Origin: Escherichia coli
GTDB lineage: Bacteria; Pseudomonadota; Gammaproteobacteria; Enterobacterales; Enterobacteriaceae
Direction: 5' to 3' (one strand)
Assembly (NCBI RefSeq): GCF_003334355.1
Contig: NZ_QOWP01000002.1
DNA: 64,000 nucleotides
The position numbers and the translations under genes were made by a program. Every line of letters starts with the position of its first letter. Positions within the stretch are counted from its first letter, which is position 1. Below the pieces are notes generated by a model. The model was not told the DNA's origin and searched no databases. It saw only the letters and a program-made list of their open reading frames with translations. This document shows positions 40,410 through 44,938 of this stretch, piece by piece.

Positions 40410-40637
40410 GTGATGAATCAGACATACATTCCATCATGCTTGAGAAATCTGCCAAAGCAGAAAGCAAAGCCCCGCAAGCAAGCCATAAAGGACGCTAAGT
40501 CAGAGGTTATTGATAAAGCAATACAATTGCTCAGGGAGGAGTTAAGAAGTGGCAAGCTCGAAGGAATGATGATGCCCTATCAGCGCGGATATCTATCGGC
40601 GATTAGTAAGTTGGAAGTATTGAAGAGTGAATTATGA
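40410..40637 (+). CDS. Hypothetical protein (75 aa), early-left operon
   Basis: ORF MMNQTYIPSCLRNLPKQKAKPRKQAIKDAK...; no recognisable family. Confidence 0.45.
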   Translation: MMNQTYIPSCLRNLPKQKAKPRKQAIKDAKSEVIDKAIQLLREELRSGKLEGMMMPYQRGYLSAISKLEVLKSEL

Positions 40638-40692
40638 ACTACCTGGAATTTCCGGATGGTTCATTGTTTTGGCAGCAAGCATAGAGGTGAAT

Positions 40693-40989
40693 ATGGAATT
40701 CAAAGGTACTAAAGGTAAGTGGGAAATAATGATGGATGGCGATGAGATTAAAATCATCCAGGCAGACTCACTTGAAAATGGCGCAGGCTGGCGTTCGTAT
40801 ATTGCAATCTGTGAGGAAGTTCAATGCATTGAAGATGCCAATCTAATAGCGGCAGCACCTGAACTTCTCGAAGCACTTCAGTTATTACTTAAGCAATCCA
40901 AAAATAGAACAACGACAACATATCCAGAATGGTATGGAGCTGTTAATAAAGGTTTTGCAGCAATCATCAAGGCTCTGGGAGGTGAGTGA
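40693..40989 (+). CDS. Hypothetical protein (98 aa)
   Basis: GAGGTG RBS then ATG 40693: MEFKGTKGKWEIMMDGDEIKIIQADSLENGAGW... Confidence 0.5.
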   Translation: MEFKGTKGKWEIMMDGDEIKIIQADSLENGAGWRSYIAICEEVQCIEDANLIAAAPELLEALQLLLKQSKNRTTTTYPEWYGAVNKGFAAIIKALGGE

Positions 40990-41189
40990 TGTGCGAGTTT
41001 TACGAAGCAGATATCAAACGCCCAGAAATGGCAAGTGATGCGACATTACGTGATTACTTCGCGGCAAAGGCTATGCAAGCAATGATTAGCAATCCATCGA
41101 TTATCGATAATGATTCTGATGGAGCTGTTAATTATGCAGCAAGCGCTGCATATAAGTTTGCAGACGCAATGCTCAAAGCTCGCGAATAA
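40989..41189 (+). CDS. Hypothetical protein (66 aa)
   Basis: GGAGGTGAG RBS; MCEFYEADIKRPEMASDATLRDYFAAKAMQAM... Confidence 0.5.
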   Translation: MCEFYEADIKRPEMASDATLRDYFAAKAMQAMISNPSIIDNDSDGAVNYAASAAYKFADAMLKARE

Positions 41190-41291
41190 GCACTGTGTAT
41201 TCATTCCAACGAGTGAATACACGGAGCAATGTCGCTCGTAACTAAACAGGAGCCGACTTGTTCTGATTATTGGAAATCTTCTTTGCCCTCC

Positions 41292-41316
41292 GATGTGAGG
41301 GCTTTTTTATATGCAT
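41292..41316 (+). terminator. Rho-independent terminator (tL-like) upstream of cIII-like gene
   Basis: GCCCTCcgatgtGAGGGC followed by TTTTTTAT; preceded by a perfect 9-bp inverted repeat GTGTATTCA...TGAATACAC (41204-41231). Confidence 0.65.
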
Positions 41317-41374
41317 ACCAATAACGCTTCACTCGAGGCGTTTTCGTTATGCAATCAAACAGAAGGAGCATCCT

Positions 41375-41545
41375 ATGCAACAGTTCGCTATTGCAGGGGC
41401 GGCATCGGTTCGCCCTTTCAACCCGATTTTATCGGTACAGCATTCACGAAAAAATATTTTAACCGGAGCAGACTTTAAACAACCAAGAATGAAAAGTTTG
41501 CTCGAAAAGCTTTGGGATATTTTGAAACAACAAGGCCGTCCATGA
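41375..41545 (+). CDS. cIII: CIII-like protein (56 aa), putative FtsH inhibitor
   Basis: MQQFAIAGAAS...MKSLLEKLWDILKQQ parallels lambda CIII (MQYAIAGWP...SLLERITRKLRDGWKRLIDIL) as recalled; AAGGAG RBS. Confidence 0.6.
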   Translation: MQQFAIAGAASVRPFNPILSVQHSRKNILTGADFKQPRMKSLLEKLWDILKQQGRP

Positions 41546-41700
41546 GTTTTACAGATAACTGGTCAGACGAAGAATTCATTCGTCAGATGAAAGAATTAAT
41601 CGGTAACGAAGGAGATATTCATGTCACTTGCAACCACAGTGAAGGAGAGCAAGTTACAGAGACGCATGTACACGCAGAAAGCTCTCTGGTATCGCCATAA
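41542..41700 (+). CDS. Small hypothetical protein (52 aa) in the kil position
   Basis: MSFTDNWSDEEFIRQMKELIGNEGDIHVTCNHSEGEQ...; translationally coupled (ATGA) to the cIII-like gene. Confidence 0.4.
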   Translation: MSFTDNWSDEEFIRQMKELIGNEGDIHVTCNHSEGEQVTETHVHAESSLVSP

Positions 41701-41801
41701 TGGTGACCGCGAAGGAATGCGGGTATGCCTTAATTTGTCCCGAGTCGAAGTATTAAATCAGCGTTATTTCCTTGGGCCATGTCCATTCTGAGAACAATCA
41801 T

Positions 41802-42790: not shown

Positions 42791-42813
42791 TTTAGAAAAA
42801 TAAGGATTTAATT

Positions 42814-43110
42814 ATGCCAGCGCCTCTGTATGGTGCGGATGACCCGCGCCGCTGTTCCGGCAATTCCGTATCGGAGGTGCTGGATAAATTCAGAAAAAAC
42901 TACGATCGAATAATGTCTCTACCGCAGGAAACGAAAGAGGAAAAGGAATTTCGCCACTGTATATGGCTTGCAGAGAAAGAAGAACGCGAGCGAATTTACC
43001 AGACATCAATCCGACCATTCCGCAAAGCCACATATACCCACTTCCCTGAATATATCGACCCGCGCCTGCGTAATTACCGCTCACGCTATGGCGCTATCAG
43101 TAATGACTGA
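42814..43110 (+). CDS. Hypothetical protein (98 aa)
   Basis: [46 protein letters not shown]... Confidence 0.5.
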
Positions 43111-43120
43111 GGAATTTACC

Positions 43121-43288
43121 ATGAGAGGACTTGCATACAATCCCGGCATTCTTCCGGCAGAAATGATTATTCGCCAACGCGTAAAGCCAATGCCATCGAG
43201 AGAGGAATTGCTTAAGAGAAATTCTTTTCCATCAGTAAATCAAAACAAATATCTGAATGCGATGTGGCGCAAAGGAGGCAACCAGTGA
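43121..43288 (+). CDS. Hypothetical small protein (55 aa)
   Basis: GAGGAA RBS then ATG 43121: [34 protein letters not shown]... Confidence 0.45.
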
Positions 43289-43539
43289 GTAATTCAGCAC
43301 GACTACAGCTTGGTTTTTCACCGCTATCAAAAACTATCATGCTGGCAAAAATGCGCGATGTTGAAGGTGGACGTATGCGCGTTGGCAATGATCCAGGTCG
43401 TGATGTTACCAATGAGGCTGCTCAATTGGTGTGGCGACTGGTCATGGCTGAAGGTGGTGAGATCGCGTGGGAGCTGGATGATGGTTCTCGCATGGTGTTG
43501 AAGGCAGAAAAGCAGGAGGCAACCAGTGAGCAAGATTGA
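43285..43539 (+). CDS. Hypothetical protein (84 aa)
   Basis: AGGAGGCAACCAGTGAG RBS/GTG start (same motif reused at 43515-43530): [36 protein letters not shown]... Confidence 0.5.
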
Positions 43540-44209
43540 TTATCAGGCACTGCGTGCTAAGGCAGAAAAAGCAACGTGTGGCGAGTGGTCGCTCGAATAT
43601 GGAGAGGAGAGATTTGATGCTGGTGATGCACTAATTCATCGTGAAGTTGTTGGATATCTTCCAATTTGCAGAATTGAAGGAGCGCATCCTGAAGGCGGTT
43701 TCGATGAAGATTTCCAAATGGAACAGCAGGCCAATGCTGAATTCATCACCGCAGCCAATCCCGCTACCGTCTTGGCGCTGCTGGATGAGCTGGAAAGAAA
43801 CCAGCAATACATCAAACGCCGCGACCAGGAGAACGAGGATATTGCGCTAACAGTAGGGAAACTGCGTGTTGAGCTTGAAACAGCAAAATCAAAACTCAAC
43901 GAGCAGCGTGAGTATTACGAAGGTGTTATCTCGGATGGGAGTAAGCGTATTGCTAAACTGGAAAGCAACGAAGTCCGTGAAGACGGAAACCAGTTTCTTG
44001 TTGTTCGCCATCCTGGGAAGACTCCTGTTATCAAGCACTGCACTGGTGACCTGGAAGAGTTTCTGCGGCAGTTAATCGAACAAGACCCGTTAGTAACTAT
44101 CGACATCATTACGCATCGCTATTACGGGGTTGGAGGTCAATGGGTTCAGGATGCAGGTGAGTATCTGCATATGATGTCTGACGCTGGCATTCGCATCAAA
44201 GGAGAGTGA
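43526..44209 (+). CDS. Ead/Ea22-like prophage protein (227 aa)
   Basis: [27 protein letters not shown]... N-terminus and coiled-coil middle recall the Ea22-like family common in E. coli prophages; from memory only. Confidence 0.55.
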   Translation: MSKIDYQALRAKAEKATCGEWSLEYGEERFDAGDALIHREVVGYLPICRIEGAHPEGGFDEDFQMEQQANAEFITAANPATVLALLDELERNQQYIKRRDQENEDIALTVGKLRVELETAKSKLNEQREYYEGVISDGSKRIAKLESNEVREDGNQFLVVRHPGKTPVIKHCTGDLEEFLRQLIEQDPLVTIDIITHRYYGVGGQWVQDAGEYLHMMSDAGIRIKGE

Positions 44210-44400
44210 GATCGGTTTTGTAAAAGATAACGCTTGTGAAAATGCTGAATTTCGCGTCGTCTTCACAGCGATGCCAGAGTCTGTAGTGTCAGATGATGAC
44301 CGTACTCAAACATCGGGTTGAGTATTATCTTACTGTTTCTTTACATAAACATTGCTGATACCGTTTAGCTGAAACGACATACATTGCAAGGAGTTTATAA

Positions 44401-44682
44401 ATGAGTATCAATGAGTTAGAGTCTGAGCAAAAAGATTGGGCGTTATCAATGTTGTGCAGATCCGGTGTCTTGTCTCCATGCAGACATCACGAAGGTGTTT
44501 ATGTAGATGAAGGTATAGATATAGAGTCGGCATACAAATATTCCATGAAGGTTTATAAGTCTAATGAAGACAAATCCCCATTCTGCAATGTGCGAGAAAT
44601 GACTGATACCGTGCAAAATTATTATCACGAGTACGGTGGAAACGATACTTGCCCTCTCTGTACAAAACATATAGATGATTAA
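44401..44682 (+). CDS. Hypothetical Cys/His-rich protein (93 aa)
   Basis: MSINELESEQKDWALSMLCRSGVLSPCRHHEGVYVDEG...CPLCTKHIDD; AAGGAG RBS. Confidence 0.5.
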   Translation: MSINELESEQKDWALSMLCRSGVLSPCRHHEGVYVDEGIDIESAYKYSMKVYKSNEDKSPFCNVREMTDTVQNYYHEYGGNDTCPLCTKHIDD

Positions 44683-44770
44683 ACCCAATATTACATAACA
44701 ATCCTCGCACTCGCGGGGATTTATTTTATCTGAACTCGCTACGGCGAGTTTTGTTTTATGGAGATGATAA

Positions 44771-44938
44771 ATGCACTTCCGAGTCACAGGTGAATGGAAT
44801 GGAGAACCATTCAACAGAGTTATCGAAGCCGAGGACATCAACGACTGCTATAACCACTGGATGATATGGGCGCAGATAGCACATGCAGACGTAACCAATA
44901 TTCGAATTGAAGAACTGAAAGAACACCAAGCCGCCTGA
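44771..44938 (+). CDS. Small hypothetical protein (55 aa)
   Basis: GGAG RBS; MHFRVTGEWNGEPFNRVIEAEDINDCYNHWMIWAQIAHADVTNIRIEELKEHQAA; stop lies in the loop of the following terminator. Confidence 0.45.
   Translation: MHFRVTGEWNGEPFNRVIEAEDINDCYNHWMIWAQIAHADVTNIRIEELKEHQAA

Follow-up and report, generated by a model that had tools for sequence, protein, structure and literature searches.

The interval 40410–44938 of a 64,000-nucleotide (nt) stretch of Escherichia coli DNA, which we call the window and number from its first letter, is best read as the ordinary pL operon of a P22-like lambdoid prophage at argW. It would comprise an HK022-type pL promoter and putL antiterminator, a recombination module of Erf, a single-strand DNA-binding protein (SSB) and Abc2, ea genes of phage lambda, and cassettes joined by a short linker. 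We put the probability of this reading at roughly 0.88. In every tested respect the system is of an already known kind.

A first-pass annotation, made from the letters alone, had described the interval as an early-left operon in which a recombination core is flanked by small accessory open reading frames (ORFs). This layout proved right: the ORFs form a same-strand chain from 40413 to 44938, and the cIII-like gene, Erf, the short SSB with its DDSIPF tip and the Ea22-like protein are all present as judged by PHROG and Pfam matches and by C-terminal sequence. The further statement that about nine of the ORFs have no recognisable family could not be upheld. All ten ORFs of 50–100 amino acids (aa) other than cIII match PHROGs (E-values 1e-18 to 1e-57), four have Pfam-A families (Anti-RecBCD_p2, Lambda_ea8_5, DUF2737, DUF7446), and relatives of a fifth carry PF27050. 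Two of the supposedly unknown ORFs are the named lambda genes ea8.5 and orf55, and Abc2 had been overlooked.

Promoter, antiterminator and prophage setting

On the plus strand, the interval is flanked by torI and by the immunity region, whose cro-like and cI ORFs (38486–39503) are divergent, and this location identifies it as the early leftward operon. The features of the operon and of the prophage ends are the following.

7776–7850: argW, tRNA-Arg(CCT), with one copy of the att core at its 3' end
7976–9169: ORF of 397 aa, integrase-sized, adjoining the tRNA
39578–39606, plus strand: pL promoter of HK022 type with overlapping OL operators (promoter scan TTTACA-17-CATCAT; the O276 annotation places the −35 and −10 elements here)
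39622–39684, plus strand: putL antiterminator RNA, cis-acting, in place of N/nut (100% identity to putL as annotated in O276)
39746–40279, plus strand: free-standing HNH endonuclease, 177 aa, in the position of HK022 nun (phrog_99, 5e-66; Pfam HNH_3, 5e-14)
40413–40637, plus strand: ORF A, 74 aa, basic N-terminus and then predicted helical (phrog_5305, 1e-37)
40693–40989, plus strand: ORF B, 98 aa, P22 orf78 family (phrog_1273, 1e-30, the PHROG that also holds P22 orf78)
40989–41189, plus strand: ORF C, 66 aa, its start overlapping the stop of B in TGATG (phrog_2201, 1.5e-18, and three other PHROGs)
41229–41324, plus strand: ORF of 31 aa covering the intrinsic terminator (no PHROG match)
41285–41308, plus strand: intrinsic terminator, tL-like, GCCCTC-loop-GAGGGC (41285–41302) followed by TTTTTT
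41323–41342, plus strand: terminator-like hairpin
41375–41545, plus strand: cIII-like gene, divergent in sequence, 56 aa (phrog_550 'CIII', 1e-22)
41542–41700, plus strand: ORF F, 52 aa, in ATGA overlap with the cIII stop, coding status doubtful (phrog_2123, 7e-42)
41621–41791, plus strand: ORF G, 56 aa, Sf6 gp29-like, directly upstream of erf, GGAG 8 nt before the ATG (phrog_1723, 9e-36)
41802–42407, plus strand: Erf single-strand annealing protein, 201 aa (Pfam ERF, PF04404, 9e-43; phrog_155, 2e-57)
42407–42790, plus strand: SSB-like protein, 127 aa, HK97 gp40 type, 'SSB-1b' (phrog_44 'single strand DNA binding protein', 3e-27)
42814–43110, plus strand: Abc2, anti-RecBCD, 98 aa (Pfam Anti-RecBCD_p2, PF11043, 8e-60, model positions 1–97 of 97; phrog_656, 8e-57)
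43121–43288, plus strand: ORF K, 55 aa, DUF2737, equivalent to P22 orf56 and HK97 gp38 (Pfam DUF2737, 2e-29)
43274–43289, plus strand: linker copy 1, with a Shine-Dalgarno sequence, the GTG start of L and the TGA stop of K; encodes the tail ...RKGGNQ of K
43285–43539, plus strand: ORF L, 84 aa, DUF7446, between the two linker copies (Pfam DUF7446, 1.6e-16; phrog_1578, 9e-34)
43515–43530, plus strand: linker copy 2, with a Shine-Dalgarno sequence and the GTG start of ea22; read as the terminal ...EATSEQD of L, in a frame different from that of copy 1
43526–44209, plus strand: Ea22, 227 aa, with a variable Ead/Ea22 N-terminal domain, a coiled coil and a lambda-identical C-terminal domain (Pfam Ead_Ea22, 2e-35, residues 2–146)
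44401–44682, plus strand: lambda ea8.5, 93 aa (100% nucleotide identity to lambda; Pfam Lambda_ea8_5, 1e-46)
44700–44721 and 44732–44751, plus strand: two tandem terminator-like hairpins 3' of ea8.5 (1 nt differs from lambda)
44771–44938, plus strand: lambda orf55 (lambdap35), 55 aa (6 nt differences from lambda 29118–29285; phrog_676, 2e-39)
44928–44947, plus strand: terminator, just past which the lambda homology ends
44997–45197, plus strand: TorI-type excisionase of the KplE1/HK620 family, the final gene before attR (phrog_66; annotated as torI in HK633 and in the E. coli genomes that match)
45271–45286: second copy of the att core, 75 nt past torI

The control region is that of the HK022 group. 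Positions 39500–39688 are 99.5% identical (189 nt) to the cI end, OL, pL and putL of HK022, O276 and HK75. OL1–3 and pL are annotated in the matched HK022-type region, where the CI-repressed pL reads away from the repressor gene. Identity to these phages breaks off one base past putL: it ends at 39685, with divergence from 39686. The nun gene is absent after putL and the next ORF is that of the HNH endonuclease, which shows 98% nucleotide identity to a gene of Salmonella phage UPF_BP1. No N-like ORF was found in the ORF list or by PHROG search of the window. Rfam gave no credible match over 38.0–46.5 kb, putL having no Rfam family, and putL folded alone is not unusually stable (z = −0.8). Since terminators are located within the operon, its full-length reading would be expected to need a put-modified RNA polymerase, by analogy with HK022. 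Near the first of these terminators there is also a perfect 9-bp inverted repeat, GTGTATTCA...TGAATACAC (41196–41224), just 3' of the ORF C stop; the terminator hairpin follows about 60 nt further on, and the repeat itself lacks a T-run.

A 16-bp direct repeat, CTGCAGGGGACACCAT, occurs at the 3' end of argW (7836–7851) and at 45271–45286 and bounds a prophage of about 37.5 kb. This prophage is P22-like lambdoid, intact-looking and located at argW. With the integrase-sized ORF near argW and the excisionase gene at the opposite end, the layout resembles the KplE1/HK620-type arrangement. Past torI follow an ORF of LysR-type size and one for a membrane protein of 445 aa, both putative host genes (dsdC/dsdX-like).

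Pieces of 40300–45250 are common, with matches in 555 phage records and in 3924 of 5426 complete E. coli genomes. None of the phage records or E. coli genomes searched has at least 80% of this combination in one place. Exact copies of every small ORF exist in public data, most of them on up to 1000 or more contigs, and the mosaic breakpoints are located at gene starts and directly after putL. The locus is a new shuffle of old parts.

Recombination module and small open reading frames

Erf is 75% identical to Erf of P22. The SSB-like protein encoded behind it ends in ...YDDSIPF, and its family has the consensus end DDxIPF. The acidic tip of E. coli SSB, ...DDDIPF, recruits partner proteins. For the HK97 gp40 type, to which the protein encoded here belongs, Zheng et al. 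2025 (PMC12315714) use the name SSB-1b, since its predicted fold is SSB-like. The third protein, Abc2, is 93% identical to P22 Abc2, the chain present in the RecBCD–Abc2 structures 8B1T and 8B1U. P22 Abc2 attaches to those domains of RecC that recognise Chi, and it probably co-opts RecBCD instead of blocking it (Wilkinson et al. 2022, PMC9836394). From the high identity we infer that the Abc2 encoded here binds RecC and modifies RecBCD as well. NCBIfam gave zero matches for ten ORFs, Abc2 included, and is therefore uninformative.

An annealing protein combined with an SSB and an anti-RecBCD protein, without a nuclease, defines the 'HK75' Rec-module type, which is found in 27 of 325 lambdoid phages; phages of this type are mostly without Chi sites (PMC12315714). 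By its sequence the Erf/SSB/Abc2 set is a further instance of this catalogued module. The three genes are contiguous, as in the HK75 type, Chi sites are likewise zero, and no difference was detected. For GCTGGTGG we counted no Chi site on either strand of the 64-kb window, with 1.7 expected from shuffles. Zero Chi fits a prophage that carries an anti-RecBCD gene besides its Rec module and is mildly surprising for the approximately 26 kb of flanking chromosome.

Downstream, positions 43780–44947 are about 99–100% identical to phage lambda, covering the 3' two-thirds of ea22, the intergenic sequence, ea8.5, the hairpins, orf55 and the terminator. The C-terminal 81 aa of Ea22 have 100% identity to the solved lambda domain 8DSX, and Ea8.5 has a homologue of solved structure (2M7A, 2e-17). 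The gap between ea22 and ea8.5 (44210–44400; 190 nt, non-coding) has 100% identity to lambda. G+C is low, about 0.40, in the ea8.5 and orf55 units, and each has a terminator after it, a moron-like layout. In lambda, the exo-xis region is tied to the lysis–lysogeny decision and ea22 is pro-lysogenic (PMC7093339, PMC8614690).

The coding status of the ORFs was assessed by a crude pN/pS ratio, i.e. by counts of synonymous and non-synonymous differences against the homologous stretches in about 120 phage contigs. Purifying selection acts on cIII (0.04), Erf (0.04), G (0.20), K (0.22; 52 variants), the SSB-like protein (0.24), B (0.27), orf55 (0.30) and Abc2 (0.31). For A, C, L and ea8.5 the sample held too few differences to judge. 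The ratios were higher for F (2.9), for the 31-aa ORF (0.76) and for a 43-aa ORF at 40282–40413 (6.9), which belongs to no family. In the 80 nt where F and G overlap, substitutions follow the frame of G and not that of F; the part of G outside the overlap has 31 synonymous and 7 non-synonymous codon differences. From these ratios, the evolution of the overlap in the frame of G and the position of the 31-aa ORF on the terminator, we consider F, the 31-aa ORF and the 43-aa ORF probably not protein-coding.

It is very unlikely that many of the small ORFs are annotation noise, that is spacer, leader or regulatory sequence. The three ORFs just named and the lack of informative substitutions in A, L, C and ea8.5 agree with that explanation, but the ratios of B, G, K, orf55 and cIII (0.04–0.30) do not. 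Further, A keeps its 74-aa length down to 58% identity, K and L are Pfam families, conserved motifs persist among the more than 1000 diverged relatives of C, and the lambda exo-xis ORFs have been confirmed as expressed by ribosome profiling (PMC8614690).

Among the small ORFs upstream of cIII, A has 41 clusters of enterobacterial homologues, nearly all of 74 aa, and no Pfam, PDB or PADLOC match. An identification of A, or of C, as Ral was rejected because direct comparison shows no similarity. The names in the cluster tables (Ral under ORF A, Erf fragments under ORF G) are apparently mislabelled and were not used. ORF B matches P22 orf78 by BLASTP (42% over 48 aa, E 3e-5), and it is its homologues that carry PF27050. 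Its AlphaFold2 model (predicted local distance difference test, pLDDT, 77) has three predicted strands and two long helices. The model has no fold match in PDB, and its BFVD matches are all uncharacterised phage proteins. Profile comparison of B with the N-terminal domain of Ea22 (43526–43840) by hhalign gave 57% probability (E 1e-4), and BLASTP gave no match. A pattern K-x-T-x-G-x-W ... Y-x-x-I-C ... (D/Q)AN..I.AA.P..L.AL is common to both. Tentatively, B and the Ea22 N-terminal domain may be distant paralogues within one operon.

ORF C belongs to a family of phage proteins of about 70–80 aa with 1077 representatives (E ≤ 1e-3, 50% clustering) and the conserved pattern LRDYFAA...AY..ADAML.AR. 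Its AlphaFold2 model is a predicted helical hairpin (pLDDT 79), and no relative was found in Pfam, among PDB sequences or among PDB folds. ORF K has 77% identity to orf56 of P22, a gene located behind abc2 there too. The family names DUF2737 and DUF7446 did not occur in the literature searched.

The cIII-like product shows 32–37% identity to CIII of lambda, P22 and HK633 and has the MQxAIAG N-terminus and the L.DIL.Q.G C-terminus in common with them. The identical allele is found in HK542, E212 and others, where RefSeq annotates it as CIII. No kil gene is located between cIII and the recombination genes, and no ORF of the window resembles P22 Kil. The relatives HK633 and EC31 have cIII–kil, and the ATG of F is the exact point from which the window is homologous to both. 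Relatives hardly differ in the initial 80 nt of F, as would suit a conserved leader or coupling element better than a protein. F and G, both labelled 'recombinase' in PHROG, share 80 nt in different reading frames. Neither is P22 Arf: F is in phrog_2123, G in phrog_1723 and Arf in phrog_2445, and BLASTP found only the 7-residue match SDEEFI (E 0.6).

According to the first-pass annotation, early-left regions of this kind often encode host-takeover or anti-defence proteins. This holds for Abc2, which by its sequence is the one clear protein of that kind in the region. Whether A, B, C, G, K, L and orf55 are likewise early effectors, comparable to Ral, Gam, Abc2, Kil or Ocr, is a possibility we regard as doubtful. 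Their early-left position beside the RecBCD modulator Abc2 is in its favour, as is the fact that the equivalent slots of P22 and lambda hold ral, gene 17, kil and sieB. Screens of accessory genes from comparable regions have yielded counter-defence genes including Ral and Abc1 (PMC12373910), and purifying selection together with exchangeable cassettes is typical of arms-race genes. However, A, B, C, F, G, K, L and orf55 match no solved structure by sequence. A, B, C, G, K, L and orf55 show no similarity to a known anti-defence or host-takeover protein in the PDB sequence search or, for B and C, in fold searches; structure prediction for these two revealed no known anti-defence fold. PADLOC gave 0 matches for the small ORFs, and as its models represent defence systems and not counter-defence, this result shows only that the ORFs are not known defence proteins. 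A peptide-string search of the supplements found none of the ORFs in the accessory-gene library of PMC12373910, and the phenotypes of lambda exo-xis concern lysis and lysogeny (PMC7093339, PMC8614690). The suggestion is plausible but generic, and not specific to this locus. The first-pass annotation had held that membership of all ORFs in common phage families lacking regulatory or anti-defence roles would speak against it; every ORF of at least 50 aa does match a common catalogued phage family, so that this is largely the picture obtained.

The repeated junction sequence

The 16-mer GGAGGCAACCAGTGAG is present in exactly two copies, at 43274 and 43515, compared with a chance expectation of 0.02. 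The repeated ribosome-binding site and start motif had been noticed before, with the second position correct and the first placed at 43270 instead of 43274. Translational coupling of several ORFs had also been proposed, in agreement with the five overlaps present: B/C (TGATG), cIII/F (ATGA), Erf/SSB (TAATG), K/L (GTGA) and L/Ea22 (14 nt).

An exact-match scan of IMG/VR revealed at least 120 contigs with the 16-mer, which together with the two copies of the window gives at least 137 occurrences. Among the matches listed, all 137 occurrences have an ORF that begins at the GTG of the motif, and in 131 of them the upstream ORF ends at an offset of 12 or 22 nt from where the motif starts. Flank clustering distinguished at least 17 unrelated upstream ORF tails, ending in ...RKGGNQ or ...EATSEQD depending on the reading frame. 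Downstream, at least nine unrelated families were found among the matches listed, with Ea22-like proteins dominant, followed by DUF7446 and seven others. Conservation of the linker often reaches upstream to TTCGCnGCnCAGCTTCGCAAAGGAGGCAACCAGTGAG, and both outer flanks are unrelated. Unrelated upstream proteins (IMG/VR loci L003–L122) have an identical C-terminal tail, ...(F)A.QLRKGGNQ. This common tail results from the conserved junction reaching about 20 nt into the upstream coding sequence.

Where a contig has two copies, these are 241–1405 bp apart among the matches listed, and this variable spacing implies cassettes of differing content between the linkers. The cassette of the window is L; the 241-bp spacing of the L type was also found on three of the contigs (L018, L065 and L066). 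HK633 has a copy with one mismatch at its gp32-to-Ea22 junction. No description of this linker sequence of 16–37 nt was found in the literature searched.

From its distribution, the linker would serve both as a Shine-Dalgarno and restart signal and as a patch of homology for the swapping of cassettes. That it is mainly a translational signal, a strong ribosome-binding site with a restart codon which ensures equal coupled expression and has spread by selection for this property, seems unlikely to us. The sequence GGAGG is located six nt before a GTG which is the family-consistent start of Ea22 (Pfam match from residue 2) and of DUF7446, and among the matches listed the upstream stop overlaps or closely follows the start in the 131 of 137 cases with offsets of 12 and 22, all as expected of such a signal. 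A ribosome-binding site, however, needs no exact conservation of 16 to about 37 nt extending into the upstream coding sequence in two frames, while identical junctions between unrelated flanks are expected from recombination at shared homology. The two roles are not mutually exclusive.

Conserved boundary 'linkers' are part of the modular theory of lambdoid phages (Susskind and Botstein; Juhala et al. 2000, cited by PMC4546147). We take the junction described here to be one of these, as a short sequence common to unrelated flanks, in a phage that encodes Erf. Relaxed recombination by Rad52-like recombinases has been reported (PMC3945230), and by analogy recombinases of this kind such as Erf plausibly help linker exchange. 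A bolder proposal, which we consider quite improbable, has two separate parts. The junction ...CAGCTTCGCAAAGGAGGCAACCAGTGAG would be a selected, integron-like signal for cassette exchange of 'ea' genes in enterobacterial lambdoid phages, combining a target of relaxed recombination of the Erf/Red type with a translational restart and with a common tail (...QLRKGGNQ or ...EATSEQD) which is added to unrelated accessory proteins and may itself be functional; and at least one of A, B, C, G, K and L would be a new counter-defence protein.

Relation to known systems

The closest overall likeness is to the early-left operon of P22 (c3-kil-arf-erf-abc1-abc2-orf56-ea genes), which has the same order and strand logic and supplies the relatives of Erf (75%), Abc2 (93%) and K (77%) named above. 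In P22, too, a homologue of B (orf78) is located upstream of c3, and the variable 'ea' run ends at xis, likewise here. Unlike P22, the window has no homologues of kil, arf, abc1, ral, sieB, gene 17 and gene 24 (N); the SSB-like gene takes the place of abc1, and antitermination is of the putL RNA type. The int/xis genes of P22 at thrW contrast with the IntS/TorI-type module at argW, in which the integrase is called by ORF size.

The pL–putL–nun region of HK022 is matched with 99.5–100% identity in the CI C-terminus, OL, pL and putL, and nun is replaced by the HNH gene. With the lambda exo-xis region the identity of about 99–100% over 43780–44947 includes intergenic sequence and terminators, but the N-terminal third of Ea22 is another allele, orf60a, orf61, orf63 and orf73 are missing, and the segment abuts torI, not lambda xis.

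By analogy with these characterised relatives the operon would operate as follows. Transcription would start at the HK022-type pL, repressed by an HK022-type CI. The nascent putL RNA would render RNA polymerase resistant to terminators without an N protein, so that it could read past those at about 41290, 44700–44750 and 44930 to the excisionase gene. The products would appear in the order HNH endonuclease; A, B and C; the divergent CIII; G; Erf, SSB and Abc2; DUF2737 and DUF7446; Ea22, Ea8.5 and Orf55; and TorI. CIII is the presumed FtsH inhibitor and would favour lysogeny. Erf would anneal single strands, the gp40-type SSB would carry its host-SSB-like DDSIPF tail, and Abc2 would bind RecC and co-opt RecBCD. 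The ea22, ea8.5 and orf55 products would modulate the lysis–lysogeny decision. At the junctions, the 16-mer core with its Shine-Dalgarno sequence, GTG start and overlapping stop would couple translation and offer homology for cassette swaps.

Several points weigh against this reading. Expression of the operon is deduced from characterised relatives, and A, B, C, G, K, L and orf55 belong to families without assigned function. The SSB assignment is built on the PHROG profile, the C-terminal tip and the published predicted fold; Pfam SSB gives no match to the protein, and comparison of the family profile with PDB gave top matches that are all SSBs and non-significant (E 0.12–9). In the cIII-like protein a 12-aa insertion interrupts the region of the amphipathic helix, conservation of the ESLLERITRKLR core is poor and Pfam gives no match; given this divergence, with 32–37% identity, inhibition of FtsH is not assured. 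As to the linker, P22, lambda and E. coli EC31 are without it. Its recombination role is deduced from distribution, and because the scan was conditioned on the exact motif, the counts show promiscuity of the flanks and not an enrichment of breakpoints.

We nevertheless favour the reading as an ordinary pL operon at the probability given above. Beyond correct annotation the locus has little significance, being one more mosaic of catalogued lambdoid modules. The role of the abundant small early proteins is a question general to lambdoid phages and not special to this locus. A, B, C, G, DUF2737, DUF7446 and orf55 occur in great abundance among prophages of E. coli and Salmonella and therefore are reasonable candidates for functional screens, and the widespread junction sequence would be usable for mapping cassette exchange in the accessory 'ea' region.

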